Virus record (IMG/VR): IMGVR_UViG_3300025897_002116
Coordinates: 1-64,000 of that record
Direction: 5' to 3' (one strand)
DNA: 64,000 bases
From: a virus
In this document: piece after piece, positions 4,809-61,634 of the stretch
Position numbering within the stretch: the stretch's first letter is position 1
How the letters are laid out: each line of letters begins with the position of its first letter
Notes under the pieces: model-generated
What the model saw: the letters and a program-made list of their open reading frames with translations, nothing else
Told to the model about the DNA's origin: nothing
Databases searched by the model: none
Made by a program: the position numbers and the translations under genes

Positions 4809-5543
4809 TTACAGTCCTTTTAAAATGTTACTTAGTCCTTCTGAGGATTTAATTGCCTTTCCGGTGGTAGAAACTCTTTTTTGTACTTTAGGGGTACTGC
4901 TTCCACCCTCCCTCTTCCAAATATCATACTCAACCTTAGAAGCTAGAAAGTCTGCTGAGTGAAGTATAGATATAATACTTGTTTTCTGTCTTGATGATTC
5001 CATATGGCTAAAAAAGTATGCTTCGTTAGCTTTATCAAACACACCATCATGTAATCTAATGGCTAAAAACTCCTTTTGGTTAACTTTGATACCAAATTTC
5101 TGTAAAATAAATAAAGATCTATCTGGTATGAGCATAAAATCAAGGTCTGAATTGAAAGTATACATTTCCGATAGCTTATCTTGTCGCCATTTATCGGTTT
5201 GAGGTATGTAATTAGGCTTCTCACCGTCTCCTATCTTACCTAAATCATGAAATAGGGCAGAAAAAACCAATTCTTCCTCGGTAAAGTCAACAGTTCCGCC
5301 CATCTCTGCGTAAAGTCTTGCCTGTTTTACTGCATATTGTACGACTCTATTAACGTGATCGACATAACCTCCGGGGAAAGCACTATGATACCATGTCTTT
5401 CCACTAGCAGGTGCCATAATATACACCTCGGACAAAGAATCTAACATGGTTTTTACTTGATCCTTCCGGGTAGTAAGGTAGGTATCAACAATTTTTAAAT
5501 GTTTTTCCCAATTTAATTGGATTTTATCGGCAGATATGGACAT
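4809..5543 (-). CDS. HD-domain phosphohydrolase
   Basis: H..FPGGYVDH, LFHDLGKIG, IRLHDG and ILHSAD motifs. Confidence 0.85.
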   Translation of the reverse strand: MSISADKIQLNWEKHLKIVDTYLTTRKDQVKTMLDSLSEVYIMAPASGKTWYHSAFPGGYVDHVNRVVQYAVKQARLYAEMGGTVDFTEEELVFSALFHDLGKIGDGEKPNYIPQTDKWRQDKLSEMYTFNSDLDFMLIPDRSLFILQKFGIKVNQKEFLAIRLHDGVFDKANEAYFFSHMESSRQKTSIISILHSADFLASKVEYDIWKREGGSSTPKVQKRVSTTGKAIKSSEGLSNILKGL

Positions 5544-5544
5544 A

Positions 5545-5700
5545 GATAACCTTTTTTTAGTTTAATTATATATTTTATTACTTTGTTATTAAAATTATAT
5601 TTACTATATTGTTAAAAATATTATTAATTATTACTATTATTATTATTTTATAATTAATTATTTATATATTCTTTAATATCTTATTATATACTTCTAAGTT
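5545..5700. other. Extremely AT-rich intergenic tract
   Basis: About 150 bp almost devoid of G/C. Confidence 0.7.
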
Positions 5701-5724
5701 ATACTAAAAAACGCATAATGGCAA

Positions 5725-6357
5725 CTATTCCACAATAAATTTTTCATATATATTTTTTTTAAGTACGGATTGAGAGCTTGCATCCCAAAACACTTTCATT
5801 TTTAGTGTTACTGTATCCCCAATAAAGGTAGGAGGGATTGGTCCAACGGTTCTTCTACTGTAAACTTTAGAGTTTTTATTATTAGAAAAGTAAATAGACG
5901 TATTTTGTACCAAATTCATAACTGTACCTTCAAACTGATTTAATACAACTGTTGTTGTTCCTACCGAGAGAAGATTTCCTGAAACAGAGTAGTTACTTTC
6001 TAAAAAGTTATATAGAGGCAATGTATAGGTAACACTCGAACCTAACTCCCAATATTTATCTGTATCAAATTCTGCTGATACTACTGAGATTTCATTATAT
6101 CGGTACAGGGGGTTTACATCGGAGGCCTCTACATCTACAAGAAAGTAGGGCAAATAATCTCTATTCCAATTAAGCTTAACATGGTAATACCCATTTTCAT
6201 CAGCCGGAGTACTAAATAACATCCTAGCTTCACATTCACCTCCAAGACAGGCAGGAGGGTAATCAAATTGCTCTTCACAGGAAAAGAGTGTGGGGATTAA
6301 TAAAAAGACAACCGCCGCGCGAAACGCGCGAAGTTGCCACGAAAAATTATCTTCCAT
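5725..6357 (-). CDS. Putative lipoprotein
   Basis: Hydrophobic stretch VVFLLIPTLFS followed by Cys (lipobox-like LFSC). Confidence 0.65.
   Translation of the reverse strand: MEDNFSWQLRAFRAAVVFLLIPTLFSCEEQFDYPPACLGGECEARMLFSTPADENGYYHVKLNWNRDYLPYFLVDVEASDVNPLYRYNEISVVSAEFDTDKYWELGSSVTYTLPLYNFLESNYSVSGNLLSVGTTTVVLNQFEGTVMNLVQNTSIYFSNNKNSKVYSRRTVGPIPPTFIGDTVTLKMKVFWDASSQSVLKKNIYEKFIVE
6316..6341 (+). repeat. GC-rich palindrome plus CGAAGTTGCCACG core (inverted copy of the 9.3-10.6 kb element)
   Basis: cgcgcg-aaa-cgcgcg at 6316-6330; cgaagttgccacg at 6329-6341. Confidence 0.65.
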
Positions 6358-6874
6358 AATCAGTCATTTTATAAGATTCTCCCAAACGTTCGACCACCGA
6401 ACGGCCTTGATCAACGGTGATATTAAAAAACTCTTTCTTTTTATTAACCCTAAAGCCTTCGACCTCAAGATAGGCATGTATCTCTCTCTCCAATGCATGC
6501 GCATTAAAGCAAGGGAATGCCCATTCAACCTTAAAATCTAAGGCAACTCCAGTTGCAGCATTAATCTGTTTGGCTCTCTCCCCGGGTCGGTTCTTTGTAA
6601 AGCCGATCTTCACCAGTCCGGGCATTGTGATATTAGACAGTATATAGATCCATTGGCAATTGACCTGACCTTTTGGCATCTGTGTATGTCTGGGTCGATT
6701 GGTATAGTATCTAACGTCCTCCCAGCCCTCTGATATCGGGTAGTCTGAGTTACTAGATGGAGTTAATGTGAAATATTCGGCAGGTGTGGATAATTGATCA
6801 TCGGCACATGCAATGAATTTAGATGCTTTTTTGGGTGTGATCCTTGTGATTTTGAATCCTTCTTGTTTTCTCAT
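6347..6874 (-). CDS. GIY-YIG family (T5orf172-type) domain protein
   Basis: WIYILSN..MPGLVKIGFT..P.ERAKQI..ATGV...LEREIH...EFF. Confidence 0.85.
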   Translation of the reverse strand: MRKQEGFKITRITPKKASKFIACADDQLSTPAEYFTLTPSSNSDYPISEGWEDVRYYTNRPRHTQMPKGQVNCQWIYILSNITMPGLVKIGFTKNRPGERAKQINAATGVALDFKVEWAFPCFNAHALEREIHAYLEVEGFRVNKKKEFFNITVDQGRSVVERLGESYKMTDYGR

Positions 6875-6880
6875 ACGATA

Positions 6881-6932
6881 TAACCTTTATTTTTATATCT
6901 AAAGATAAGAACTTTTACTCAATTAAACAACT
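6881..6932 (-). promoter_or_regulatory. Class I (host sigma-type) promoter plus leader
   Basis: Minus strand AGTTG-N16-TTCTTATCTTTAG ... AAAGGTTA upstream of the GIY-YIG gene. Confidence 0.7.
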
Positions 6933-6952
6933 TATTTACACTAAAAGTTAAA

Positions 6953-7363
6953 TTAAAGTTCGGTGAGTAGCTTTATATATTTCTTTATTACATTGCATTT
7001 TTCATACTCCTCCACACTTTCAAAGTAGATTCTCATCTCATCTAAACCATCATACACATCATCTTTTTCATAAGAGGTACCTATAGTGTAGATTGTCTCA
7101 AACCTGTCGCTATTGATGCGAGTTAGGTAGCTATATATTCGGCTATAGTATTTGTATTTGATACTGGTAGACACCTTCTCATACTCTTGGGGATAGTTTC
7201 TCTTATACATTACATCCATTAGAATATAGCTTTGAAGGCCATTCAACACCATCCCCATTAGTACATAAGGATTTTTAAGAGCATCCGAGGCTTCCTTATA
7301 AATCTCCTCATCACCGGATTCAAAGATAGAGAATAAAGTATTTTTATTTAACGGTTGCATCAT
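6953..7363 (-). CDS. Hypothetical protein with C-terminal UVR-like (EEYEKC) motif
   Basis: YFESVEEYEKCNVIKK. Confidence 0.6.
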   Translation of the reverse strand: MMQPLNKNTLFSIFESGDEEIYKEASDALKNPYVLMGMVLNGLQSYILMDVMYKRNYPQEYEKVSTSIKYKYYSRIYSYLTRINSDRFETIYTIGTSYEKDDVYDGLDEMRIYFESVEEYEKCNVIKKYIKLLTEL

Positions 7364-7452
7364 TCATAAATAGTTCTTATATTATGTAATATACAATACC
7401 CCTATATGGTAAAAATTTTGCCAAAAAATTTCTTTAAGTATTTTGTATAAAC

Positions 7453-7491
7453 AGTTGGAAAGTAGAGAAATATTTCGTATATTATAGTATA
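7453..7491 (+). promoter_or_regulatory. Class I promoter on the plus strand, firing into an ORF-poor region
   Basis: AGTTG-16 nt-TTCGTATATTatAGTATA; same elements and spacing as the minus-strand copies. Confidence 0.65.
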
Positions 7492-7894
7492 GAGAAAAGG
7501 TAAGATCTTAATGCCGATAGAATTATTCGGGGGAATGTCCGGAGGCAGCCCATATTAAGATCGCACCATAGAACTATAACACCCAGCATCCTCTGTATAG
7601 GACATAAGAGTATACAGATATAGAGATAATATAAGATGTGAGTGAGAACGAATGGGCAAGTAAATGATTGATGTATAAGATGAATGATGATTGATGAATG
7701 GAGTATGAATGGAAAGGTTTGTATCTAATATATACATATATAAATATATATTACCTATATACCTAAATTTCATCAGAAATATACTCCCACGTATGGCGCA
7801 GCCTTGACAGAGCCGTACCTCTTAGGGAACTATACCGGCAGTGTTATATCACCGTTAGCTCACCTTGATCAAAGCCTGCCCGTGTATGGCCGTA

Positions 7895-8233
7895 CTAAGT
7901 TTTGTAGTCACCTAATACCATCTCTGTTATGTCTATATCAGCCATGTCCATCTTGTATGTAGTCCTTGTAGACATCATATCATAAGTATAAAGATGTATG
8001 GTCGTATTGGTGATCTTATGTACGTTCATTGAAGAGGGTACACTAAGGCATGTTACTGAGTAGTCTTTATCTAGACCATCCCATGAGTTATATACCTCTA
8101 GTCTGTACTCCTTGTCTCCTTTGTAGGTAAAGCGTAAGCTGCCTCCTTTGGTAAGGTTCTTGATTAAAGCTATCTTAGACACAGCCGCCTTAACTCTTTG
8201 ATTGTATGTGGTAAATAATGTATTAGTATCCAT
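7895..8233 (-). CDS. Hypothetical early protein
   Basis: 112-aa ORF directly after a class I promoter repeat. Confidence 0.7.
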   Translation of the reverse strand: MDTNTLFTTYNQRVKAAVSKIALIKNLTKGGSLRFTYKGDKEYRLEVYNSWDGLDKDYSVTCLSVPSSMNVHKITNTTIHLYTYDMMSTRTTYKMDMADIDITEMVLGDYKT

Positions 8234-8297
8234 AACCTTTATTTTTATCTATTTGACTTATACCTAAATATACGAACTTTAATTCAGAAAGGCAACT
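8234..8297 (-). promoter_or_regulatory. Class I promoter/leader repeat
   Basis: aacctttatttttatct...ttatacctaaatatacgaactttaa...aaaggcaact. Confidence 0.85.
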
Positions 8298-8548
8298 TAT
8301 GCCGAACAACGATCATCACCTAAATCTACCTCTCTACGGTACACCGCACCCTTTACAGAGTCTTCCCAGTACCCTTTAACAATAGCCTGCTTACATTCAC
8401 CAAGAGTATCGCAATGTAGATGGTCACCGAGTTTGTTATTAACCGGCTTAATAATCCAATCATTGTATATGGCTCGGTAGGAAGCTATGAAAGATAAACT
8501 AGCCGTAACTATGTTATAACTGCCTGCTTTAATTTTAGTAACCTTCAT
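8297..8548 (-). CDS. Hypothetical early protein
   Basis: 83-aa ORF with AAAGGTTATG leader. Confidence 0.65.
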   Translation of the reverse strand: MKVTKIKAGSYNIVTASLSFIASYRAIYNDWIIKPVNNKLGDHLHCDTLGECKQAIVKGYWEDSVKGAVYRREVDLGDDRCSA

Positions 8549-8560
8549 AACCTTTATTGT

Positions 8561-8713
8561 TTAATGTCCTGTATAAATGTCTTGCCCTGATATCGTAGTA
8601 ACCTCACCCGTAATAAGATCTGTCATCTCTATCAGCTCATCATCCGTTATATAACCTGAACCCCATGCCTTAATAAGATCGTTGATTGCCTGCTGTGTTG
8701 ATTGTCTGTCCAT
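8561..8713 (-). CDS. Small hypothetical early protein (start revised to 8713, MDRQST...)
   Basis: The promoter repeat at 8714-8766 lies inside the longer ORF-track call, so the true start is the ATG after the leader. Confidence 0.6.
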   Translation of the reverse strand: MDRQSTQQAINDLIKAWGSGYITDDELIEMTDLITGEVTTISGQDIYTGH

Positions 8714-8766
8714 AACCTCTTTCTTTATATACCTAAAGATACGAACTATAAGTTTAAAAGGCAACT
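8714..8766 (-). promoter_or_regulatory. Class I promoter/leader repeat
   Basis: tatacctaaagatacgaact...aaaaggcaact. Confidence 0.8.
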
Positions 8767-9155
8767 ATTATAGGAGATTTACATTCCGTCTAAGGTTCTC
8801 TTTATTCCTTTACCCTTCTCCTACCCTACCACATAGGCAACGTTATGAATATGCTAAAGGAATTAGGTTTTAGGGGTATACACGTCTAAATATATTTTGT
8901 ATGGCCGGAAAAGTTGTAAGGGAGACACATGCAGCCCAATACTTCACTTTCTAACCCCACAACAAACTACTTCATTTTTCTACACATCATACATCTATTC
9001 ATAGTACAATACAATCAATTCAATATATACATATATACTTACAATATAGTTCATACACTTCACCGTAAACAATCACCTTAACCTTCTTTCTCCCTTGATC
9101 TCTCTATGTCTGTCCATATATCGTATGTACCGGTGTACCTATGTTTGGTCAAAGT

Positions 9156-9260
9156 CTATAATAACTCAGAGACGGGGTACGCCAGTACCTCCTCACCCTT
9201 TATCATCAGGTTTGGGAAGGCACGCCATTGTTGTTTGGTTGGTTGATAGGTTGGCTTCAT
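9156..9260 (-). CDS. Small hypothetical protein (MKPTYQPTKQQW...)
   Basis: Internal ATG at 9260; the upstream part of the track ORF is the GC-rich repeat. Confidence 0.4.
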   Translation of the reverse strand: MKPTYQPTKQQWRAFPNLMIKGEEVLAYPVSELL

Positions 9261-9280
9261 TTGAGACTTTAGTTGAAAAT

Positions 9281-9327
9281 GCGCGTGGCACCTTCGGTGG
9301 AGAGATGAAAACCCCCTCCCCCTCATC
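9281..9327 (-). repeat. GC-rich hairpin element, copy 1
   Basis: Minus strand GAGGGGGAGGGGGTTTTCATCTCTC-CACC-GAA-GGTG-CCACGCGC. Confidence 0.8.
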
Positions 9328-9368
9328 ATTCCTATCCTCCATCCAATCCCATTCCCTACCGGCATTGA

Positions 9369-9890
9369 TCATAATACTGCATTACTATTAATCTGTCTAT
9401 CAAAGCAAAATGTCTCATAATCTTTCTCATTAACCTTATACCCCCAATGCAATAAAGATTGCTGTATCCTTGGAGATATATTCCAATTGCCTTCATTATG
9501 TATCTTTGTATATATTCCTGTTCTCCATCTACCGTTGCTACCGCAGAACTCCTGCCATCTCTGTATCTGTCTATTATCGTCTGAGTGCCTTCTTCCGTTA
9601 TGGTACTTTGTATACCACTCAAACCAACCATATGGATCATCCTTATGCATCCATTTCATATCCCTCCAATAAGCATAGTTCATTCCACTTCTTATCTTGA
9701 ACTTATTCATCTTAGGTTTGTATGTTTCTCCTAAGTATAAGCTTGTGTCTACGTTATCGTACGTTTCAAATAGAGTACTATACTCACAATCACCTTCTAG
9801 TTTTTCTATACCAAAATACGATCCTCCGAATATTCCTTCTCTAAGCATCTCACTTGGTGTCAATAAAGGGTTGAATTGTAATGTACTCAT
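9369..9890 (-). CDS. Conserved hypothetical protein (TP.EML..G.FGG.YF family)
   Basis: Motifs LTPSEMLREGIFGGSYF, DPYGWFEWY, DD.RQI.RW and QSLLHWG. Confidence 0.75.
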   Translation of the reverse strand: MSTLQFNPLLTPSEMLREGIFGGSYFGIEKLEGDCEYSTLFETYDNVDTSLYLGETYKPKMNKFKIRSGMNYAYWRDMKWMHKDDPYGWFEWYTKYHNGRRHSDDNRQIQRWQEFCGSNGRWRTGIYTKIHNEGNWNISPRIQQSLLHWGYKVNEKDYETFCFDRQINSNAVL

Positions 9891-9910
9891 ATGTAGTTTA
9901 TGTTAATTTC

Positions 9911-9960
9911 GCGCGTGTCAACTTCGTTGACGGGAGAACAAACGCCCCCGCCCCCTCATC
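9911..9960 (-). repeat. GC-rich hairpin element, copy 2
   Basis: Minus strand GAGGGGGCGGGGGCGTTTGTTCTCCC-GTCAAC-GAA-GTTGAC-ACGCGC. Confidence 0.8.
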
Positions 9961-9980
9961 CTTATCCTTCTACTTAAAAA

Positions 9981-10199
9981 TTAGCGCTGTACGTTGCTAA
10001 AATAAGTCTTCAATGTATCCAATCTATCATCTGCATCTGTTAGCATCATTAATGCATCTTCGGCATTTTTATAGAAATCATCTGTTGAATGATCTCCTAT
10101 GCCGGCCGGATGATTAGATAAAAGATTTAATGTTAGTAGGGCCTTTGCTTTATCTGCCTTTGCAGATGATTTTAACATAATGTATAGTTCTTCTTTCAT
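9981..10199 (-). CDS. Hypothetical protein
   Basis: 72-aa ORF with a PAGIGDH motif. Confidence 0.65.
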   Translation of the reverse strand: MKEELYIMLKSSAKADKAKALLTLNLLSNHPAGIGDHSTDDFYKNAEDALMMLTDADDRLDTLKTYFSNVQR

Positions 10200-10210
10200 A
10201 GTTCTGAGGT

Positions 10211-10369
10211 TTAGCTTTTAGAAATATATTTGTAGTATCTGTATATCTCATCTTTGGTACCCATAATTTCAATCACCTCTGGAATTCCTTTCTCCTCTAA
10301 TTCTCTGAGTAGATCTTTATCCGTAGCGTTCATAAAGTCAACTGTTACCTGCATGAATATTTGTTTCAT
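10211..10369 (-). CDS. Small hypothetical protein (52 aa, not in ORF track)
   Basis: MKQIFMQVTVDFMNATDKDLL...YISKS fills the gap between neighbours. Confidence 0.55.
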   Translation of the reverse strand: MKQIFMQVTVDFMNATDKDLLRELEEKGIPEVIEIMGTKDEIYRYYKYISKS

Positions 10370-10581
10370 TTTATCTTATATTTCTTCTTATATATATCAA
10401 TGAATGCTTTTCCTACACCTACATCCAATATCTCCATTCCGGCTGGTATCTTCTTTGATCTCTCTGCAAGTATAGGATCTACATATCTTAGGTCCGTAAA
10501 TACTTTAAGCCAAACTTTTCTACCGTTTGGTTTCTTGTATGTTACTGCTATCGGGATCTGTTCTTTTGGTATATATGTCAT
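10366..10581 (-). CDS. Hypothetical protein (start revised to 10581, MTYIPKE...)
   Basis: The upstream extension of the track ORF is the GC-rich repeat. Confidence 0.6.
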   Translation of the reverse strand: MTYIPKEQIPIAVTYKKPNGRKVWLKVFTDLRYVDPILAERSKKIPAGMEILDVGVGKAFIDIYKKKYKIK

Positions 10582-10586
10582 AATTC

Positions 10587-10634
10587 GCGCGTGACTCCTT
10601 CGGAGGAGAGAGGTTAAACGCACCCTCACCCCCT
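10587..10634 (-). repeat. GC-rich hairpin element, copy 3
   Basis: Minus strand AAGGGGGTGAGGGTGCGTTTAACCTCTCTC-CTCC-GAA-GGAG-TCACGCGC. Confidence 0.8.
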
Positions 10635-10642
10635 TAGTTTAA

Positions 10643-11149
10643 TTATTCAAATAAACTTAACTGTACTGTACGTATTTCAGGAACTATCTTATAAGCACTC
10701 AAAACCTTTCTAGTTGGTCTGAATGCTTCAATGCCCCAGTCAGCTAATTCTCCATCTATTACTGCTACTGCATGCTTTGCAACCGTCACTATATAGTTAC
10801 CTTTAGGATGAGATTGAACAAAGCTTTTTAAAGTCTTCTTTCTCCATACAAAATCACCGTTGAATTTATACCTATTCTTAGTCGACTTAGATCCTAATAC
10901 CTCAACTTTAGCTTTCTTATCACCAAGCAGTATTCCTTTTGATTCAGCTTCTTCGAATTTACTATTAATAACTTTTTCTAAAGTTCCTTTTTTATCCTTC
11001 CTAGCGAAGGTCTCTTTTGCAACTTTATGTGCTATTGTATAATCTACTTCTCCTGCTATCGCTAATGCTCTCACAAAGCAATCATTTTTCTCTTTTGCAG
11101 CAAGAGGTGAACTAAATTCCGAGTAATTTTTTTGAATGTCTAAATACAT
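10643..11149 (-). CDS. Hypothetical protein with papain/C39-like Cys-His motifs
   Basis: NDCFVRALAIA ... KHAVAVIDG. Confidence 0.55.
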   Translation of the reverse strand: MYLDIQKNYSEFSSPLAAKEKNDCFVRALAIAGEVDYTIAHKVAKETFARKDKKGTLEKVINSKFEEAESKGILLGDKKAKVEVLGSKSTKNRYKFNGDFVWRKKTLKSFVQSHPKGNYIVTVAKHAVAVIDGELADWGIEAFRPTRKVLSAYKIVPEIRTVQLSLFE

Positions 11150-11210
11150 AACCTTTTTTTTTATTTTAACTTATACCTAAATATACGAACTTTAATTGTA
11201 AAAAGCAACC
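11150..11210 (-). promoter_or_regulatory. Class I promoter/leader repeat
   Basis: ttaacttatacctaaatatacgaactttaa...aaaagcaacc. Confidence 0.85.
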
Positions 11211-11212
11211 TT

Positions 11213-11596
11213 TTAGGCTACTTTATTTTCTACAAAAACTTTGTCTGCCCAAGTCTTAGCATTCACAGCTGAGTATTGGTGCTGATCATATAGGTTCGTG
11301 TTAAAGAATAGTTGATTGACTTCTCCTACAGTCACCTGAGCCATGAGCTCTTTATCCATAAAAACTATGGTTTTTCCTTTACGAGCAAATACTGTTAACC
11401 AGAACTCTGAACCTTCGGCTCTGAATTGAATAGTTTGCAAAGCTCCTTTCTTCCAATTACTTAACTTTGGCATGATAGTACCAACTTCGTAAGCTTTCAT
11501 AAATCCAGCTTTTACTTTAACGATTGCTTGGTAAGTTCCTTTTTGACCTTTGATGTAGTCTACTATGTTGATCGATGTTGTATTTCTAATTTCCAT
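11213..11596 (-). CDS. Hypothetical early protein
   Basis: 127-aa ORF between two promoter repeats. Confidence 0.7.
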   Translation of the reverse strand: MEIRNTTSINIVDYIKGQKGTYQAIVKVKAGFMKAYEVGTIMPKLSNWKKGALQTIQFRAEGSEFWLTVFARKGKTIVFMDKELMAQVTVGEVNQLFFNTNLYDQHQYSAVNAKTWADKVFVENKVA

Positions 11597-11660
11597 AACC
11601 TTTATTTTTATCTTTTTAACTTATACCTAAATATACGAACTTTAAGCCGGAAAGGCAACT
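11597..11660 (-). promoter_or_regulatory. Class I promoter/leader repeat
   Basis: aacctttatttttatctttttaacttatacctaaatatacgaactttaagccggaaaggcaact. Confidence 0.9.
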
Positions 11661-11711
11661 TTTAACCAAAAAAAAACGGAAAGAATTCCGTTTAATTTTA
11701 AAAACAAGGGG

Positions 11712-11963
11712 CTATGAAATCCTAGTATTTATTTGTTCTTTCTTAATTTCCAATTGTATTACCAAGTCTTCATAAAAAAGACTAACAAGTTCATTTGTAA
11801 AAAAAGTATTACCTTTGGCAGTCAGCCAGGGAGGTGATAAATACATTCTTATAAAATTATTGGCAAGCTTCTGAGAGGTTCCAATTTGCTCTAAAGTTAA
11901 ACAGGAGTTTATTGCTCTCACTGTAAATTTGTAATTCTTAAGAATTTGTCTCTTTAGTTTCAT
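11712..11963 (-). CDS. Hypothetical protein
   Basis: 83-aa ORF. Confidence 0.55.
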   Translation of the reverse strand: MKLKRQILKNYKFTVRAINSCLTLEQIGTSQKLANNFIRMYLSPPWLTAKGNTFFTNELVSLFYEDLVIQLEIKKEQINTRIS

Positions 11964-11967
11964 AAGC

Positions 11968-12741
11968 TTATTTGATGATTAGGTCTTTAAAGTCATTAAC
12001 GAATACCTCTACATTACTAACTCTTACTCCTTTTACTTTATGAATATGTTTAATATTATCATACGTGGAATGAGTAGTTACTAATAGATCAGCTGATTTG
12101 CCGGACGCAGTTACCTTACTAGCAGCAATTCTAACTATATTGGATAGAGTATGATCAAATTTAACTCTAAGTTTAGTTCTATCACTTCTATTAAAATTAA
12201 TACCTTTAGTTAGAAGGTTATCTAATAAGTTAACTTTATCTAAAGAGTCTACTACAGTTCTTTGAGCCTCAATTAACTTAAATAGTTCCGTACGCTTAGT
12301 CTTAAACGTTTCAATAAACTTATTGTATTTAGTAGTACAATTATTTAAGTCTGTAAGGATATCCTCTTTGTATTCAACAGCAATATTGATATAATGATCA
12401 ATCACATTTCGTTTTTCTCTAAGAATTATGTCATTACTGATTTCATATCTTTGAGAACTCATTGATAACTCAATTGAATTATGTAATCGAAAATTATCAT
12501 CATTCCATGAGGTATAGGTATATAGCGACAGTATAGTTGAATTGTTTTTAAAATCATTTATTTCAACATATTCATTACCTATTCTAACTTTGAAGTTTTC
12601 AGAAAAGTCATCTTGAAAATAACGAGCTAGTATTTCTCTCTTTTCATTATCAGCTCTTTGAGTTAAAGAACTAATTCTGATATCCAATTCTGCTTTTTCT
12701 GTAGTTAGCTTATCTAACTGATCTCTATGTAAATTTTTCAT
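11968..12741 (-). CDS. Hypothetical coiled-coil early protein
   Basis: 257-aa ORF after a promoter repeat. Confidence 0.7.
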   Translation of the reverse strand: MKNLHRDQLDKLTTEKAELDIRISSLTQRADNEKREILARYFQDDFSENFKVRIGNEYVEINDFKNNSTILSLYTYTSWNDDNFRLHNSIELSMSSQRYEISNDIILREKRNVIDHYINIAVEYKEDILTDLNNCTTKYNKFIETFKTKRTELFKLIEAQRTVVDSLDKVNLLDNLLTKGINFNRSDRTKLRVKFDHTLSNIVRIAASKVTASGKSADLLVTTHSTYDNIKHIHKVKGVRVSNVEVFVNDFKDLIIK

Positions 12742-12805
12742 AACCTTTATTTTTATCTTTTTAACTTATACCTAAAGATACGAACTTTAAGCCGGAAAGG
12801 CAACT
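12742..12805 (-). promoter_or_regulatory. Class I promoter/leader repeat
   Basis: Identical to 11597-11660 except one base. Confidence 0.9.
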
Positions 12806-12825
12806 ATTATCTTAATATTATTTAG

Positions 12826-13188
12826 TTAAAGGCTATTTAATAGCCCTAATGATCCAGAGAAGTCTACTCCAGCTATTACAGATTCCGGAGAGTCAACTAC
12901 CTTAGTAACCATTTCTTTTAACTGTGTATGTATTTCTTCCTCCAGTTTTACTGCAGATCTCTGTTTACTTCTCTCCTGTTCAGTCCAGCCTTCACCACCT
13001 AGTCTGATAGAATCATGACTTGCAAAATCACATTCTCTGGTAAGTTCACCGCTCAGGGTATGACCTTCATAGTCAATTAGCATACTAAAAAAGTATCCTT
13101 CATTATGTACACTGTAGGCTTTGTACTCGTCTATGAGTAGATTCTTGGCTTTACTAAAATTCTTTTTTCTTAATGCTGTTTTTGTCAT
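12826..13188 (-). CDS. Hypothetical early protein
   Basis: 120-aa ORF after a promoter repeat. Confidence 0.7.
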   Translation of the reverse strand: MTKTALRKKNFSKAKNLLIDEYKAYSVHNEGYFFSMLIDYEGHTLSGELTRECDFASHDSIRLGGEGWTEQERSKQRSAVKLEEEIHTQLKEMVTKVVDSPESVIAGVDFSGSLGLLNSL

Positions 13189-13252
13189 AACCTTTATTTA
13201 TATCTTTTTAACTTATACCTAAATATACGAACTTTAAACCAGAAAAGCAACT
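13189..13252 (-). promoter_or_regulatory. Class I promoter/leader repeat
   Basis: Near-identical 64-bp copy. Confidence 0.9.
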
Positions 13253-13464
13253 GCTTTTGTGACGTATTTTACCTACTATTAAACCACCAAATGAGTGTAT
13301 GTACGATTATTGCCACTAGTAACCACCATTGTATTCTTCTTGATTCACGTTTCTGAGAGTTCATTTTTTGTATTTATCTTTAAGGAAGCTAATCATAGAC
13401 ATACAGTATAATACGAATATTAATGTTGCAATATCTATTATTAATCTAAATTCATCCATATTGA

Positions 13465-13689
13465 TTATACGTTTTCTTTTCTTTTATTATCCTGAACAAC
13501 AAAGTAGTAAGAGAACCCTATAAGGGCTATTGATAGAATTAAAAGTGTAGTAATTGGATTCATCATCATTACATATAAGACTAAGAAAAAAGCCTTGATT
13601 GACTGTATCAACAAAAATACTGCGCATATTGTAGCCCCTATGGCTGCAAGTATGGTGAGGAATCTAAATATTAAATCTTCTATTTTCAT
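13465..13689 (-). CDS. Small two-TM membrane protein
   Basis: Two long hydrophobic segments and a basic C-terminus. Confidence 0.65.
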   Translation of the reverse strand: MKIEDLIFRFLTILAAIGATICAVFLLIQSIKAFFLVLYVMMMNPITTLLILSIALIGFSYYFVVQDNKRKENV

Positions 13690-13753
13690 AACCTTTATTT
13701 ATATCTTTTTAACTTATACCTAAAGATACGAACTTTATCTTAAAAAGGCAACT
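13690..13753 (-). promoter_or_regulatory. Class I promoter/leader repeat
   Basis: Near-identical 64-bp copy. Confidence 0.9.
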
Positions 13754-13881
13754 TTCTTACGTTTTATTTTTAATGCCCTAAATGCATTTCTATCTCCCAC
13801 ATCTCCATTTCTTCAATTTCTTTTGAGGTGAAGTTTGTATTAGCTAGCATTAATTCTTTTAGGTATTCCATAACTATTATT

Positions 13882-14106
13882 TTATTTTTTTATAGGTTGA
13901 TGACCCTCAAGCATTAGATTCCAATACTTCCTTAATTTAGAGGGCAGTGACGAATTGGGAGGAGATTTTAGTTTTGCTAATTCACTACATAACCATCCGT
14001 AGTCTGGATGTTTGTTCGTAGCTAATAACGTAAATGAGATTGCATCGGCCAATTTTCTTGTTTCTTTATCAATTCTTTTCATTATGTATTTTTTTATTAA
14101 TACCAC
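13882..14106 (-). CDS. Hypothetical protein (probably starts at the internal MKRIDK)
   Basis: ORF track; overlaps the small ORF 14069-14185. Confidence 0.5.
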   Translation of the reverse strand: MVLIKKYIMKRIDKETRKLADAISFTLLATNKHPDYGWLCSELAKLKSPPNSSLPSKLRKYWNLMLEGHQPIKK

Positions 14107-14185
14107 TTGATATTACAGTTCCAACGGAATTTGCATGAACACTCAGTAAGTACATAGCTTTTTCTAATTCACTCATCTTTTTCAT
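14069..14185 (-). CDS. Small 38-aa early peptide
   Basis: MKKMSELEKAMYLLSVHANS... starts exactly at the AAAGGTTATG leader of a promoter repeat. Confidence 0.5.
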   Translation of the reverse strand: MKKMSELEKAMYLLSVHANSVGTVISSGINKKIHNEKN

Positions 14186-14249
14186 AACCTTTATTTTTAT
14201 CTTTTTAACTTATACCTAAATATACGAACTTAAAATCAGAAAGGCAACT
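14186..14249 (-). promoter_or_regulatory. Class I promoter/leader repeat
   Basis: Near-identical 64-bp copy. Confidence 0.9.
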
Positions 14250-14304
14250 GTTTTTCAATGTTTTTTTTGGGGATCTATGGGTTAACTCCGCTATAATGAT
14301 CTTA

Positions 14305-14430
14305 CTATCTTCTTGTTTCTCTCCATTTTTCCAATATGTTGGCAATTACTGCAAAAAAGATAGGTACAGGAAGTACTGCGCATATTCCTAAAAATGTAAT
14401 GATAACTATTTCTATTACAGTTGGACCCAT
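14305..14430 (-). CDS. Small single-TM peptide (41 aa)
   Basis: MGPTVIEIVIITFLGICAVLPVPIFFAVIANILEKWRETRR. Confidence 0.45.
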   Translation of the reverse strand: MGPTVIEIVIITFLGICAVLPVPIFFAVIANILEKWRETRR

Positions 14431-14691
14431 GGCGGTTACTAGTTTATATTATGTTACTGTAACCGGCTATACTCAAATAAGTATGTTTATATTGAGTTTT
14501 TTATACTAAGACTATACTTCTATGAACTTTTATATTAATGATAAATATTACTAGTTAACCATTATCTTGATTGTATTTGTAGATAAATTCATTAAAGTAG
14601 AGATTTAACTATTGTAATAAAGTTTCTATTTATTATCGGTAGAGAAGGTTATGGCAGAATGGTTTTTATTCACCTGTAACTATTTACCTGC

Positions 14692-15075
14692 ATGCCAAAA
14701 GTAGAATTATCAGCTTTTTATATAGAATTTATTGGATTTATACTTACCTTGATTGTAGGCTTAGCTATTAGAGATATGGCTATGTCTTTCGTACAAGGTA
14801 TGAAATTTAAAATGCATAAAGCTTTCAAGGAAGGAGATAGGGTCCTACTAGATGATGATCATGCATTAATTGTAAAAATAGGATTTACCGAAACAGTTTT
14901 TGGTATTTACGGAGAACAAGGATATACATGGAGATATATTCCAAATTCCAGAATAGCAGGATTGAAGTTAGAAAAAATTGTTGATCCGGACTTGCATCCT
15001 GATACGAGAGAAGAGCGTGCTCAAAAACTTCTAGATACTATTAACGTTGCTAAGAAAATAAGAACAAAATCTTAG
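14692..15075 (+). CDS. Minimal MscS-like (mechanosensitive channel) domain protein; the only clear plus-strand gene
   Basis: TM helix, then F.QG..F....FKEGDRVLL...IVKIG...T.F......IPNS; CTATTTAT at 14626-14633. Confidence 0.65.
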   Translation: MPKVELSAFYIEFIGFILTLIVGLAIRDMAMSFVQGMKFKMHKAFKEGDRVLLDDDHALIVKIGFTETVFGIYGEQGYTWRYIPNSRIAGLKLEKIVDPDLHPDTREERAQKLLDTINVAKKIRTKS

Positions 15076-15080
15076 CCCTC

Positions 15081-15500
15081 TTAATTTTTAAACATTTCTA
15101 AATACTGTGGATTTTTAGCTAAAATAGAAAAACTATTGGTTTTAGATAATCTTTTAAATTTTTGATTATTTAACAAACCTTTAAATTCTCCAAGGTTAGT
15201 AGTATCTAAGTTAGTATTTTCTATGAACTCAGTAAAATTTGCAGAGTGTATAAACTTATTAAAGTTCTCATCTTTTAGTAATTCCTGAAATTCATCATTT
15301 TGTAGAAGTATCTGTAGATCTTCACCTTCAAGCTCTACTTCGGTATCATCTTCAATTTTATATTTATTTGCTTTTTGAACTCCTTTTATTGCAGAACCCG
15401 TCATAGTATCTATTGGGAACCCTGTTGTGAGTTGTATAATGTATATAGCAACTGATATTGCTACTAAAGTAAGTGCTATTTTTATACTTGATTTTTTCAT
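15081..15500 (-). CDS. Hypothetical protein with N-terminal signal/TM
   Basis: Hydrophobic N-terminus and F..LL...F helical repeats. Confidence 0.6.
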   Translation of the reverse strand: MKKSSIKIALTLVAISVAIYIIQLTTGFPIDTMTGSAIKGVQKANKYKIEDDTEVELEGEDLQILLQNDEFQELLKDENFNKFIHSANFTEFIENTNLDTTNLGEFKGLLNNQKFKRLSKTNSFSILAKNPQYLEMFKN

Positions 15501-15529
15501 AATCTTATTGGTTTTGTTTTTTTAAGTTA

Positions 15530-16153
15530 TTATATTAAATTAGGTTTCTGTATGGTAAGAAGTTTATTAAAAGTTTTTTCATCATACCCATAAAAAGGAA
15601 GTGGCGTAATATCAGAATCTACTCCAGGATATTGTTTAAAGTATCTACTATTCAATTGGTCCTCTTTTAATATTCCTTTATTTTTAATACCACCGTACAT
15701 TAAATCTAATCCCTCTGGTAATCTATTTTCTTCAATGAAGTTCAATAGCTTTTTAGCTCCTTCGGGCCAAATTATATAAGCTAAAATAGAAAAAGTATCT
15801 GGTACTAACCAAAATGTATCTAAATCTGTTCTATCTAATATTTCTTCAAATGAAAAATCAATAGGCTTCATTAATTCGGCATCATCTTCTATAATAACAT
15901 AAGGAGCATTACTTGCAATACATTCTTCATAAAGTCTCATATGCATTCTATTTGCACATACAAGAGATGGTATATGAATCTGCAATGAATCATATTTATT
16001 TCCTTCAATCATTCTCGTATCTTCTTTGGTTAATTTATACTCTAACCCATCAACCGCATCTACAAATTCAAAATCGAAATAAGGACTAAATGTATTAGTA
16101 AATTTAGTTCTACGGTCTTGTCTTCTTTTTAACGAAATAACTTTGATGTTCAT
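15530..16153 (-). CDS. Glycosyltransferase family 25-like
   Basis: VISLKRRQDRR, FVDAVDG, IIEDDA. Confidence 0.8.
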   Translation of the reverse strand: MNIKVISLKRRQDRRTKFTNTFSPYFDFEFVDAVDGLEYKLTKEDTRMIEGNKYDSLQIHIPSLVCANRMHMRLYEECIASNAPYVIIEDDAELMKPIDFSFEEILDRTDLDTFWLVPDTFSILAYIIWPEGAKKLLNFIEENRLPEGLDLMYGGIKNKGILKEDQLNSRYFKQYPGVDSDITPLPFYGYDEKTFNKLLTIQKPNLI

Positions 16154-49178: not shown

Positions 49179-49679
49179 TTACAAGTTTTTATTATGAACT
49201 AAAATACCATTAGCAAAAAAATTACTATTGTCTTCTACATGAAAAATATAAGTCTGTACTGGTTCTCTCTCCTGTTCTTCTAAGTCTACAAGTTTTACAT
49301 TCTCTAGTTCCAAATCAATTAAACTATCTCCTACTTTAAGTTGATTAATTTCGGAGGTAAAAGTGTATCTTGCTGATGTTAGGTTTGGTTTATAAGATGC
49401 TAGGTGTTTACCCTCAACATAGTATGGATGATCAAATGTAGAAATTATTTCAATATCATTTTCTAATATCAATTTGATTAAGTCATTATGTATAGAGGTA
49501 GAAACTTCTATTACTTCTTTAACTTCTATTTCTTGAGTTTTTTCGTTATAAGAGAGAACAAAATCACCTATTCTAATGTCCTCTATGTACTTAGTATAGT
49601 AATCCTCCATGGTAACCTCTGTACCTGCTACAAAGCAAAGTTTATTGGACATTTGTTTACTATTTAAAAATTTTTCCAT
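49179..49679 (-). CDS. Stand-alone Hint (intein-like) domain protein
   Basis: CFVAGTEV, STFDHP, NFFANGILVHN-KNL. Confidence 0.9.
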   Translation of the reverse strand: MEKFLNSKQMSNKLCFVAGTEVTMEDYYTKYIEDIRIGDFVLSYNEKTQEIEVKEVIEVSTSIHNDLIKLILENDIEIISTFDHPYYVEGKHLASYKPNLTSARYTFTSEINQLKVGDSLIDLELENVKLVDLEEQEREPVQTYIFHVEDNSNFFANGILVHNKNL

Positions 49680-52083: not shown

Positions 52084-54402
52084 TTATTTATTGTGCACTA
52101 ATATTCCGTTAGCGTAAAAATTTCTATTATCTTCAACGGAAAAAATATAAGTTTGAGTTGGTACAACTGGTAGTTCCGTTATACTCAAAATAGTAGTTTC
52201 AATATCACTATCTAATGTGTATACCGTATCACCAACTTTTATCTGAGAAACTTCTAACGGTAAGTCATATCTTTCGTTTGTTAACTTAGGAGCATACGAT
52301 GCAAGTTCTAAATTATTTACATAGAATGGGTGGTCATGTGTAGATATAACTTCTGTTTGATTTGAAAAAGTATATTTAACCAAATCATCATGTACTGGTG
52401 ATTCAGTATCTAATACATTCTTATCTTGATGTATTCCAGTTTTTTCATTATACGTTAAGACTGTATCACCAACTACTACGTCTTCTATGTTTTTTTCATC
52501 TCCATTGGATAACATAATTGAAGTTCCTGCAATAAAACAATACCTATTATGTACCAATACCTTATTTGCAAAAAAGTTATGATTTACTTCTACTGTCTTT
52601 ACATTGTAAACAGCAGTTGGTTCTGTTAGTATTTCGGTTGATAATATTGTTAATTCTGAACCATCTTGTTTAAATACTTTGAATCCTTCTTCTGCTTTTG
52701 TTGTAGTAAGATTGTATACACCTGTAGTGTAATCTGGGTCCATAGATACCCATCCTTTTTCTTTTGAATATAATGGATGATCTAACGTTGATTCTATAAT
52801 ACTGTTATCTTCAAATGTGTATTTTACAGTTGTATTTACCAATTTGGATCCGATTCCTTTAACTAAGTGCGGCTCTACTACATTAGTAGCAAAATTAAAA
52901 GACAAAACAGAATCTCCTATTTTAATATCTTCTACTAATTTATACTCGCCATTTGCTAAGGTAATTTCAGTTCCTGCTACAAAACAAGGAGCGTTGTGTG
53001 ATACGATGGCTTGAAAAGAAGTAGACCCACTTATGATATATGTATCAGTATCTTCAACATCTAACTCAACAATTTTCAAACCAGTATCGGATGTTACATA
53101 AAAGTTAACCTCGTCTATATCAATAATATTACCGTTTAAATCAAAGAAATAATCATCATCCGGGTTTAGATATTGGGTAGGTTTATATGCTGTTTGATTT
53201 GAAGAAGAATTATAGACTAACCACTGTTTACCGGTGCCGGTGAATTTAGAATCTGAATCGATTACAACTTCCATAAGTGCATTATAAGTTGAATCTCTTT
53301 CTACTTTAAATACAACTTGTGATGATGTTATGAATGATCCAGATGGTAATTCGTTACCTTCAAAATTCCAAGCTAGTAATGTGGAATCGGATTCAACTTG
53401 TGGTGAACCAGAAATAAAATACGATGATACAAAGTCTCCGACTTCCGTATCTCCTATTTCGGTGAAAGTACCGTCTACCATTTGTATTTTATGAGTAGAC
53501 AATATACCAGATGATCCTGCTTTTATAAAGTTTGTAGCAAACTCATAATAATGAATATCTGATAGCTTATTAATGTACCTTGTTGTGTCCACTTCAGATG
53601 ATATGTCAGCAGGTAATTCAAATATAGAACTTATCTTATAACTATGTAGTGTTACTACACTTAAATCACTCCCATACACTATTTGAAAAGATCTTACAGA
53701 TGTTATGTGGCCATTATCATCGGTATTAGACGTATTATAGTGATATTGGAGGATTAATTTATCATCTCCTTTAATTTCCTCTACAAATGAATTCCATCTA
53801 TCTTCGTTTGACTCATTTTCTACTGTAGAACCTATTTTATAGAAACTAATAGGGTTATATACTTCGGTTATATCCTTTATAGCAACATCTGGAATATTAG
53901 ATGGGTTAATAGTTGATTCTAGTGTATTTGTAATTGAATCAGATCCAGAGTAATAATGTGAAACTACAAAACTACCGCTATCAGTTGAATCACTTGAATC
54001 AAATAAACTAAGTAGCTCTAATGTGCTTTTACAGTATACACTATCAAATAAAGCAGATTCATCATATGCTAACCTTAATATAAATTTATCATCTGAATCT
54101 TCTATACTTTCTGGGTATATTGTGTTTAAATCCTCTGGATGTAGAACTATATTATCAGCAAGTGATGGAATACTTGTGGTTATAGCAGTAGATATCGCAG
54201 AAACTATCTCATTGTGAAAAACTGGTTTGTAAGTAATATGTAACTCAGCTATGTCATTTGTAGTAAGGATTTCAGCAAATTCAGTAAAATTAAAATTTGA
54301 CAATTCATTACCGACTATACTAGTATCTGTGTTTATTTCTAATAACCTAAGATTTCCATTACTGTCTTTTGCAAAATCTGCAGAAAAAAATGTGCCTTTC
54401 AT
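52084..54402 (-). CDS. Circularly permuted ATP-grasp-like domain fused to three tandem Hint domains
   Basis: N-terminal DF..D.NG.LRLLEINT, then PDVAIK, LILQY, SVR; Hints at aa 299-470, 473-619 and 622-771, each ending HN. Confidence 0.8.
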   Translation of the reverse strand: MKGTFFSADFAKDSNGNLRLLEINTDTSIVGNELSNFNFTEFAEILTTNDIAELHITYKPVFHNEIVSAISTAITTSIPSLADNIVLHPEDLNTIYPESIEDSDDKFILRLAYDESALFDSVYCKSTLELLSLFDSSDSTDSGSFVVSHYYSGSDSITNTLESTINPSNIPDVAIKDITEVYNPISFYKIGSTVENESNEDRWNSFVEEIKGDDKLILQYHYNTSNTDDNGHITSVRSFQIVYGSDLSVVTLHSYKISSIFELPADISSEVDTTRYINKLSDIHYYEFATNFIKAGSSGILSTHKIQMVDGTFTEIGDTEVGDFVSSYFISGSPQVESDSTLLAWNFEGNELPSGSFITSSQVVFKVERDSTYNALMEVVIDSDSKFTGTGKQWLVYNSSSNQTAYKPTQYLNPDDDYFFDLNGNIIDIDEVNFYVTSDTGLKIVELDVEDTDTYIISGSTSFQAIVSHNAPCFVAGTEITLANGEYKLVEDIKIGDSVLSFNFATNVVEPHLVKGIGSKLVNTTVKYTFEDNSIIESTLDHPLYSKEKGWVSMDPDYTTGVYNLTTTKAEEGFKVFKQDGSELTILSTEILTEPTAVYNVKTVEVNHNFFANKVLVHNRYCFIAGTSIMLSNGDEKNIEDVVVGDTVLTYNEKTGIHQDKNVLDTESPVHDDLVKYTFSNQTEVISTHDHPFYVNNLELASYAPKLTNERYDLPLEVSQIKVGDTVYTLDSDIETTILSITELPVVPTQTYIFSVEDNRNFYANGILVHNK

Positions 54403-54419
54403 GTAGTAAGTATTTTAAA

Positions 54420-54427
54420 ATAAATAG
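54420..54427 (-). promoter_or_regulatory. Class II (putative late) promoter motif CTATTTAT
   Basis: Same octamer sits upstream of genes at 1468, 3820, 7366, 14626(+), 28999, 30974, 46580 and 57273. Confidence 0.65.
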
Positions 54428-54574
54428 AAGTATTTTCAGTAATACCTACTGATCTGTTAGTCTTTTTTACCATAGTCACCGTATAAGCATTCTACTCCCC
54501 GCTATACAGAAATTGTATCTTACTTAGCCCTACTGTGCGGTATGGGTACTTAAGGGTAACTATCTTTAATTAAT

Positions 54575-61604: not shown

Positions 61605-61634
61605 ATTATGTTACTATCCCCCTCATGTAAATTT

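Follow-up and report, generated by a model that had tools for sequence, protein, structure and literature searches.

How large Bacteroidota phages schedule the expression of their genes and start replication is poorly understood, and phages of the kind considered here carry nearly all genes on one strand and have no recognisable RNA polymerase, sigma factor or antiterminator. What are the short GC-rich hairpin sites that lie among the early-type genes of one such phage, and what might read them? The stretch analysed, referred to as the window, comprises bases 1–64,000 of the 72,952-bp viral contig IMGVR_UViG_3300025897_002116, which is rated about 44% complete. A first-pass annotation of the window had described three minus-strand sites composed of G-runs, a CT-rich linker, a GAA-triloop hairpin and a (C)ACGCGC end. 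These three sites are members of a strongly conserved, phage-specific family of strand-specific cis-elements of about 45–50 nt. The family has not been described before in the sources searched: Rfam gave no relevant match at E ≤ 1 for window positions 5000–16000 and none at E ≤ 0.1 for six related loci, and searches of the literature on Flavobacterium phages gave no description of the element.

Read 5′ to 3′ on the coding strand, each of the three minus-strand copies opens with a G-run, continues with a CT tract and then a C-GAA-G mini-hairpin, and closes with the box CACGCGC. Copy 3 (10633–10587) reads GGGGGTGAGGGTGCG TTTAACCTCTCTC CTCC-GAA-GGAG T CACGCGC, with the G-run at 10633–10621 followed by the CT tract, the hairpin at 10605–10595 and the box at 10593–10587; it starts 9 nt past the stop codon of the gene at 10643–11149 and ends 5 nt before an ATG at 10581. 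Copy 2 (9955–9911) reads GGGGGCGGGGGCG TTTGTTCTCCC GTCAAC-GAA-GTTGAC ACGCGC, with the G-run at 9955–9943, the hairpin at 9931–9917 and CACGCGC at 9917–9911, and ends 20 nt upstream of the ATG (9890) of a gene here called gene F. Copy 1 (9322–9281) reads GGGGGAGGGGG TTTTCATCTCTC CACC-GAA-GGTG C CACGCGC, with the G-run at 9322–9312, the hairpin at 9299–9289 and the box at 9287–9281. The anatomy, the three stems and the (C)ACGCGC ends at 10587, 9911 and 9281 are thus as first described. The three sites had also been called intergenic, which holds for copies 2 and 3 but not for copy 1, which lies inside a small open reading frame (ORF).

These copies, the only ones in the contig, stand out clearly from the rest of the sequence. 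A covariance model of the element, model R1, which was run over the window, 958 kb of loci, the larger contigs and the bacterial genomes, returned them as its only matches in the window at E ≤ 1 (58–66 bits, E from 1e-11 to 1e-13; 58.3 bits and 1.4e-11 for copy 3, 61.6 bits and 2.3e-12 for copy 2, 66.2 bits and 1.9e-13 for copy 1). ACGCGC was found six times against 1.76 expected, a count reached in 1 of 100 shuffles, and G-run matches numbered 21, 12 of them inside the three elements, where 4.94 were expected and none of 100 shuffles reached the count. The whole contig contains 19 GAA-loop hairpins with at least four Watson–Crick pairs, and ACGCGC follows only these three; the two other places where ACGCGC stands on the minus strand, at 48.3 and 49.0 kb, belong to ordinary coding sequence.

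Members of the family are present in many viral contigs of low GC content that are related to Flavobacterium phage vB_FspM_immuto (160 kb; hereafter immuto). The DNA polymerase of the contig is 68% identical to that of immuto and the order of genes is the same; the contig is therefore taken to be a fragment of an immuto-like phage of the marine Flavobacterium type. It has a GC content of about 33%, encodes DNA polymerase A, GroES/GroEL, thymidylate synthase, sugar-modifying enzymes and baseplate proteins, and has ORFs of 100 aa or more that add up to 59,854 nt on the minus strand versus 706 nt on the plus strand. A megablast search with 6 kb against GenBank phages gave no match, and a tRNA scan found none. 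Homologues of gene F led to ten viral loci, three of which contain the element. In pattern scans of IMG/VR, the full anatomy was present in 92 of the 98 low-GC matches listed, at least 63 of them distinct after removal of high-GC chance matches; as these three counts refer to the matches listed, the family is larger than sampled. A pattern scan of genome contigs gave high-GC chance matches, and none of the matches listed passed the hairpin filter.

Across the family, the G-run is usually GGGGGCG, the pyrimidine tract varies in length, and an A/T-rich run follows the box. The stem covaries and spans 3–6 bp, with an invariant closing C-G pair and a G-N-A loop, which is GAA in 66 of 67 distinct copies and GCA in the remaining one. 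Anchored on the loop, stem layers 1 to 4 are Watson–Crick pairs in 63, 63, 63 and 61 of 63 copies, although layers 1–3 are partly imposed by the search filters, for which reason two controls, described below, were run. Seventeen different stems occur among these 63 copies, with lengths of 3, 4, 5 and 6 bp in 2, 45, 12 and 4 of them, so that the hairpin measures 9–15 nt overall and exactly 11 nt in 45. The distance from loop to box is fixed whatever the length of the stem (5 nt in 56 copies, 4 nt in one and 6 nt in six), which suggests a protein that reads both the loop and the box.

The first control was model R1 itself. Over the 958 kb it gave 96 matches in 96 low-GC sources, at least 67 of them distinct, and recovered variants beyond the search patterns, namely the GCA loop and the boxes CACGCGA and CACGCGG. 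For a four-pair stem, 98.5% of 263 stem cells were paired versus 72.7% in shuffles (0 of 500), the covariation score was 0.581 versus 0.123 in shuffles (0 of 500), and registers slid along the alignment were at most 52.6% paired; the fitting of the model R1 alignment to the structure favours these results. RNAalifold retained the GAA hairpin only. The second control was a scan for the two flanking boxes with the loop left unspecified, which found a C-GAA-G hairpin in 48 of 53 distinct low-GC matches versus 0 of 13 high-GC chance matches; the remaining low-GC matches comprise three with a different insert, GTAACGTTAC, and two in which the hairpin is lost. The first-pass annotation had named a lack of conserved homologues or covariation in relatives as grounds for rejecting its reading; homologues and covariation were both found. 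In three contigs (L369, L385, L403), one of them from a 306-kb record, the flanks GGGGGCG...CCACGCGCATTTT are kept and ATTCCAGTGGCAAAGTAACGTTAC replaces the CT tract and the GAA hairpin; this form may be a sister class of the element.

Five larger contigs of related phages were compared, of which three have lengths of 168–177 kb and a completeness rating of 100%. They carry 2, 3, 2, 2 and 3 copies, 0.8–47 kb apart, and all 12 are co-oriented within their genomes on the coding strand. Immuto-related phages, with genomes of about 160–177 kb, have one to three copies, spaced from about 0.6 kb to 47 kb apart in the window and the five contigs. In immuto, one intact copy, at 42,473, separates gp196 from gp195, and one degenerate copy has kept the G-run and the box but lost the hairpin; because immuto is in culture with its host, Flavobacterium sp. 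LMO8, the element offers an experimental handle. All 63 distinct copies are in sense orientation with respect to the dominant coding strand, which is uninformative on mechanism because the genomes are nearly unidirectional. Model R1 found no element in 151 bacterial genomes of one phylum (that of a Cytophagia genome), and the element is thus not a shared host signal in those searched. At the same syntenic sites the stems differ: CACC, CGAC and GACAAC after the gp196-like gene, and CACC, CCCC, CGACC, GACC, CAAC and CGAC at the site occupied by copy 1. Retention of the element with changing stems at fixed syntenic sites indicates long-term selection in place.

The settings of the copies fall into four classes, and copies are found before start codons, before intrinsic terminators, inside a small ORF or, once, after a terminator. 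In class A, which includes copies 2 and 3, the box lies 4–33 nt before a start codon and is followed by an A-rich leader. In class B, a GC hairpin and a T-run follow the element after 10–15 nt, and then a host-type promoter; six loci have the element at this distance upstream of such a terminator. Class C, to which the intact immuto copy belongs, has another GC hairpin after the element, followed by a gene. Class D, represented by copy 1, has a second hairpin whose stem begins with the last C of the box. In the window this stem pairs CATTT (9281–9277) with AAATG (9262–9258), giving a composite feature at 9258–9322 (minus strand), and it covaries in relatives (CATTT/AAATG, CGGAT/ATCCG, CGAAT/ATTCG; inner pair set GAC/GTC or AAC/GTT). 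In a single locus, the element is preceded, at a distance of 8 nt, by an intrinsic terminator.

Class D presents an unusually clear case of a nucleic-acid structure kept inside a protein-coding frame. Copy 1 lies within a minus-strand ORF of 59 aa (9193–9372) whose ATG overlaps the TGA of gene F (ATGA). Homologues of 62–89 aa with typical start contexts surround the same element in 14 related loci, and in one locus the ORF is kept open in another frame. Conserved parts of the protein are its ends, ..GWGFD.. and ..EWCHYGGLPSPKAYM, and the segment PRAFSTNVSN (SPPKxPRAFSTNVSN), whereas the peptide across the hairpin is not conserved (SPPKVP, STKSP, SPTKLS, LDRRSP). The open frame and the unconserved peptide over the hairpin imply that the structure is held by compensatory non-synonymous changes, with indels bringing the frame back. 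Judged from these alignments, nucleic-acid structure is preserved within the coding frame at the cost of protein sequence.

Downstream of copy 1, the ORF-poor stretch at 8765–9192 (minus strand) aligns with some 450 nt of non-coding sequence conserved in relatives (loci L014, L173, L005 and others) that ends at the host-type promoter at 8764–8733. Blocks recognisable within it are CTGAG..TAGTAGACTTTGG, AGATAAAGGG, the AT-rich ATATATTCATATATTGATATAC, TTGTATAGAATAAA and a C-rich and then T-rich tract. The second ORF-poor stretch of the window, 7364–7900, showed no alignment with 8760–9200. Two relatives (L154 at about 8330–8510, L136 at about 6160–6340) have a class-B copy followed by a host-type promoter, about 150 nt of conserved sequence and a strong terminator, AGCCCGGCAGACGTGCCGGGTTTTT; this stretch, without an Rfam match, is a candidate phage small RNA.

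Do the sites mark an origin of replication or a packaging terminus? The first-pass annotation had proposed that a fourth core, CGAAGTTGCCACG at 6329–6341 on the opposite strand, makes the sites point inward at 6.3–9.3 kb. The string exists, and its 13-mer class is rare (3 matches versus 0.03 expected), but it has no G-run, CT tract, GAA hairpin or model hit and is not a member of the family. It belongs to a different element, the palindrome CGCGCG-AAA-CGCGCG with AAGTTGCCACG at 6316–6341 (plus strand), inside codons 6–14 of the coding sequence at 5725–6357. This separate element, CGCGCGAAACGCGCG(C)AAGTTGCC, that is, CCGC-CGCGCG-AAA-CGCGCG-(C)AAGTTGCC, has its palindrome conserved exactly in 24 loci (18 distinct versions), 2.4–3.9 kb downstream of a class-D copy, and CGCAAG replaces CGAAG in 9 of the 18 versions. 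The retention of GC-rich codons in an AT-rich genome suggests that the palindrome is a second nucleic-acid-level element. By inspection of the translation, the gene that bears it has a signal-peptide-like N-terminus; directly upstream lies a T5orf172/MUG113-domain protein (6350–6874, minus strand) whose immuto counterpart, gp123, is in the same place.

A model in which oppositely oriented sites converge on 6.3–9.3 kb and bracket an origin or terminus could draw on the conserved non-coding region with its AT-rich block after copy 1, on the conserved palindrome downstream of it, and on the G/C skew, which weakens downstream of the class-D site in the window and in two of the relatives (G002, G003). 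The skew never inverts, however: its cumulative curve is monotonic both for the contig and for the three complete relatives. Nor is there a flip of orientation around the locus; no opposite-orientation copy was found in any genome examined, and other copies lie about 36–47 kb away in unrelated contexts. Without a skew inversion or an opposite copy the placement around an origin or terminus lacks support, and we consider this model highly improbable. The fixed spacing of loop and box does fit the broader idea of an oriented recognition site.

Several observations bear on a possible connection of the element with the exchange of genes. Gene F (9369–9890, minus strand; 173 aa), flanked by copies 2 and 1, matched no Pfam or PHROG family, and its 242 homologues are all unnamed. 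It lies between two direct copies in the window and in two relatives (L004, L183), and two others (L144, L164) have a gene-sized interval between direct copies. Gene and element are separable: the intact immuto copy has no gene F nearby, and gene F occurs without the element in L002 and L010. Assembled contigs of four public runs were placed on the window at 90% likeness. One DNA contig of run X2, an independent sample, spans all three copies with four differences. Contigs of run X9 are interrupted at copy 1, and in one metagenomic DNA contig of that run ten letters separate 9299 from 9940, a joint that amounts to a hybrid element without gene F. This one contig hints that gene F behaves as a cassette and that the copies serve as homologous recombination junctions for its gain and loss, in which case the element may mark junctions of gene-cassette exchange in marine phage populations. 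The neighbourhood is mosaic in another respect, as gene F and the tail EWCHYGGLPSPKAYM form one fusion in L001, L002, L003, L010 and L192 but are split in others.

Might the element then be nothing but a recombination module, either a selfish or neutral conserved repeat that shuffles cassettes as PeSL cassettes do in T4-type phages or a relic of a hairpin-ended transposon? The X9 joint, the flanking of gene F by direct copies and the mosaic modules fit such a view, but compensatory evolution at fixed syntenic sites and boxes that do not vary indicate that the element itself is under selection. The Y1 (HUH) transposase domain PF01797, which would be expected between same-strand hairpin ends of the IS200/IS605 type, was absent from five records (control positive in 6 of 14 genomes), no HUH motif was seen in gene F by inspection, and the element lacks the promoter and terminator signature of the PeSL cassettes of T4-type phages. 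We therefore regard a purely recombinational role as quite unlikely.

A second repeated cassette is found in the same part of the contig. About 70 nt long, it occurs in eight near-identical minus-strand copies, TTGCC..N..GTTCGTATMTTTAGGTATAAG..AAATAAAGGTTATG, before small early genes, at 72190 (contig), 30080, 14247, 13751, 12803, 11658, 8764 and 8295, with a variant near 6940. From its TTG / TAnnTTTG form we take it to be a promoter of the Bacteroidota type together with a leader. Six of the eight copies lie in the early-type region of small genes at 8.2–14.3 kb, and several joints in run contigs link these cassettes, for example 11660 to 14178, in the manner of PeSL shuffling. An inverted promoter core, GTTGGA..TTCGTATATTATAGTATA, at 7451–7495 (plus strand) points right into the ORF-poor 7500–7900, which has strong inverted repeats (7488–7512 / 7554–7578) and no Rfam match; the interval 7451–7900 may encode a plus-strand non-coding RNA in an otherwise minus-strand genome. 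Hint/intein domains occur in two stretches of a 772-aa helicase-like protein (52087–54402) and in a separate 166-aa protein (49182–49679), both on the minus strand.

Is the element read as DNA or as RNA? A closing C-G pair with a G-N-A loop, as found here, is characteristic of a DNA mini-hairpin, the RNA form being far less stable, and stems down to 3 bp and the location of one class inside an ORF also speak for DNA. The properties that the first-pass annotation had ascribed to C-GNA-G mini-hairpins, exceptional stability as DNA and use in some phage origins and in N4 virion RNA polymerase promoters, agree with the available portions of the literature (PMC13037366, PMC4496689). On the side of RNA and transcription are the low copy number and the position of copies at the cistron boundaries of operons and before terminators; the complementarity of G-run and CT tract would require G-U pairs and has no support from covariation. 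The minus strand at 60048–63617 has radical-SAM, GTP cyclohydrolase and formyltransferase matches and is syntenic with the 7-deazaguanine cluster of immuto (DpdA, QueC/D/E/F; 30–37 kb); guanines of the phage DNA may thus be modified, which would matter to a DNA-level reading of the G-run.

If DNA is what is read, the element could be an initiation signal: C-GNA-G would fold in single-stranded coding-strand DNA, and a primase or polymerase would start a primer or transcript in the adjacent box. The coding strand would be the lagging-strand template if forks move with transcription, and there are precedents in the IncQ ssiA/RepB′ pair, the G4 origin and the promoters used by the virion RNA polymerase of N4. 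Loop and closing pair match the GCGNAGC/CCGAAGG rule as given in the available part of PMC13037366, the GCA variant still being G-N-A, and stems of 3–6 bp are stable as DNA and weak as RNA. The fixed 5-nt distance between loop and box resembles the start geometry of ssiA, where, in the accessible description, synthesis starts in a GTG a few nucleotides 3′ of the hairpin (PMC8567376), and of N4, where the excerpted account places +1 11 nt from the loop centre (PMC4496689). Such a signal would tolerate a location in an ORF or after a terminator, and immuto is annotated with a DnaG-type primase.

The strand is the difficulty. For every neighbouring gene, the strand that carries the GNA loop is the non-template one, so that an N4-type start would yield antisense RNA and an ssiA-type start would yield synthesis head-on to transcription; all copies are on one strand, unlike ssiA/ssiB, and the skew shows no inversion at the sites. 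A T7/N4-type RNA polymerase (PF00940) was not found in the contig, immuto and the three complete relatives, and a RepB′ primase (PF16793) gave no match in five records, both weak negatives as the controls were also silent. The Prim-Pol domain PF09250 was absent from the contig and immuto, the two records searched, with a positive control. An initiation signal is, on balance, somewhat unlikely.

The copies in the window should be transcribed, as no canonical promoter or terminator was found between them and the upstream operon that begins at the promoter at 11658; at the three copies there was no promoter-like or terminator-like call and no T-run right after the stem. Two metatranscriptome runs have contigs that cover small parts of the window. 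One 264-nt contig (run X20) covers 9949–10208 and ends in the G-run of copy 2; as a single low-depth contig from one study it is recorded here without inference.

A transcribed element might act in RNA processing or stability, with the G-run/CU helix and the GAA hairpin forming an endonuclease site or exonuclease barrier that separates the cistrons of a polycistronic early mRNA, as RNase III sites separate cistrons in T7. Copies do separate cistrons of a single operon that have neither a promoter nor a terminator between them, all are sense-oriented, and the G-run/CU pairing, with a predicted helix of about −10 kcal/mol, would need G-U wobbles, which only RNA provides. The helices are too short for RNase III, however, folding energies are no better than those of shuffles, some copies stand directly before a terminator hairpin that would already protect the 3′ end, and one class is inside an ORF. 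Together with the lack of covariation in the G-run/CT helix, these points make a processing element unlikely.

Four further candidate features were set aside. The G-run/CT-tract helix is predicted by folding but is not kept by RNAalifold and shows no cognate preference (−10.16 versus −10.40 kcal/mol; 1771 of 2000 permutations as good). A closing helix GCGY/RCGC was rejected by inspection, as the A in the box stays the same where U is replaced by C. The TGGCAC-like letters that suggested a sigma-54 or extracytoplasmic-function promoter in GGTGCCACGCGC are part of the variable stem, and a tRNA-like CCA end was dismissed because the letters before CACGCGC vary.

We tentatively favour a transcription-coupled role, in which the element would be a recognition signal read single-stranded as RNA polymerase passes, of the pause or antitermination type known from nut, put and ops. 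It would alter elongation through pausing and the recruitment of a phage factor, leading to read-through of terminators, and the few sites might control how far transcription from the clustered host-type early promoters reads through into the gene blocks downstream. Reading could take place on the non-template strand, whose 11-nt hairpin would fit the transcription bubble. A more specific form of this reading, which we regard as doubtful, combines a non-template-strand DNA mini-hairpin and a CACGCGC pause box at fixed distance into an ops-like landing pad for a phage elongation factor; two or three such sites would switch the host RNA polymerase to terminator-resistant transcription across a one-direction genome of about 170 kb, and the signal would be kept even inside a translated gene.

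In favour of an elongation signal, the number of copies is low (2–3 per genome), like that of nut and ops sites, and the six loci with the element 10–15 nt before a terminator recall the way in which nutR precedes tR1. The closing G, which is invariant, and the CG within the box presumably correspond to the G(−10) Y(−1) G(+1) pause consensus, which they match at common spacing. The 45 of 63 hairpins that measure exactly 11 nt have the size of the transcription bubble, which the available part of PMC5995543 gives as 10–11 nt, along with a non-template-strand mini-hairpin read by an antiterminator.

A number of observations weigh against such a signal. A NusG-like domain (PF02357) was absent from the contig, immuto and the three complete relatives, whereas the control was positive in 11 of 14 genomes, and Pfam and PHROG scans, beyond which no search was made, gave no candidate N-like factor. 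A translated ORF surrounds copy 1 and its 14 homologues, which is awkward for a nut-like RNA because translation would unfold it. The RNA hairpin is marginal, with stems of mostly 3–4 bp; for r(GCGAAAGC), the accessible text of PMC13037366 reports a melting temperature of 39 °C versus 76.5 °C for the DNA octamer. RNA folding energies are unexceptional (z from −0.4 to −2.8), and the G-run/CT pairing lacks the cognate preference noted above. Stems of 5–6 bp, found in 16 of 63 copies, would not fit the bubble, and in one locus the terminator precedes the element. Finally, the window has no copy at the position where many relatives carry one, after the gene for a gp196-like small basic protein (54575–54742), and has a 172-nt non-coding stretch (54403–54574, minus strand) instead, so no single site would be indispensable.

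How does the element compare with known systems? Its relation to the nick sites of T5-like phages bears on one more explanation, that a phage nickase, guided by the hairpin, cuts one strand within the box (for example CAC/GCGC), as in T5-like, phiKMV-like and tf phages. T5 sites are likewise strand-specific and few per genome, and the GCGC core, invariant and with a purine after it, is similar to the major-nick consensus R/GCGCRGG as excerpted from PMC3517423, which adds that T5 nicking must be guided by further sequence. The likeness extends to five bases only, the available part of that source describes no hairpin at T5 sites, and no nickase candidate is tied to the element; a nick site therefore seems decidedly improbable. 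The PeSL cassettes of T4-type phages resemble the element in being conserved short motifs of regulatory appearance that lie between small genes of a hyperplastic early region, to judge from the accessible portions of PMC4122927 and PMC2839356; they also mark indel junctions between related genomes, as the one X9 contig hints that the element may do. They differ in consisting of an early promoter and a terminator stem-loop, neither of which the element has, and their analogue in this phage is the host-type promoter cassette, whose eight copies also show joints.

The IncQ (RSF1010) sites ssiA and ssiB share with the element a CCGAAGG-tipped hairpin, a conserved 5′ segment and a 3′ CG-rich tail, in which synthesis starts, according to the available parts of PMC8567376 and PMC13037366. 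Compared by description rather than base by base, the ssi hairpin is 21 nt long (nt 7–27 in the excerpted sequence) and that of the element 9–15 nt. The ssi pair occupies opposite strands of one oriV, while the copies here are all on one strand (3 of 3 in the window, 12 of 12 in the five contigs) and can be far apart, and the RepB′ primase that acts on ssi sites was not detected in the search with the silent control. With P1–P3, the promoters of the virion RNA polymerase of N4, the element has in common three co-oriented copies in an early region, a short stem with a 3-nt G-N-A loop, stem bases that vary as long as they pair, and conserved bases at a fixed distance from the loop, as far as the accessible accounts go (PMC4496689, PMC13037366). 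The N4 hairpin, however, is on the template strand, with −8G and +1C, whereas in each of the 63 copies here the coding strand bears it, with C or A at −8; N4 stems have 5–7 bp with GGA or GAA loops, whereas here most have 4 bp; the element adds a G-run and a CT tract; and its genomes gave no match to a T7-like RNA polymerase in the searches described above.

The remaining comparison is with lambda nut (boxA and boxB), HK022 put and the RfaH ops site. The element differs from them in having no boxA consensus, a triloop instead of a pentaloop and one translated class of copies, and no N, Q or NusG-like gene was found in the Pfam and PHROG scans or, for PF02357, in the five phage records. Its CT tract only loosely recalls what we take to be the boxA consensus. 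A transcribed and untranslated site with a promoter upstream and a terminator downstream, as expected of nut, would fit copies 2 and 3 and the six loci, but not copy 1 and its 14 homologues. The likenesses lie in the layout and the parts: a genome has a few sites in sense orientation, which come after early promoters and ahead of terminators, and each site is made of a small hairpin with a covarying stem and a purine loop together with a linear conserved box. In the available part of PMC5995543, the ops element is itself described as being read as a mini-hairpin of non-template-strand DNA.

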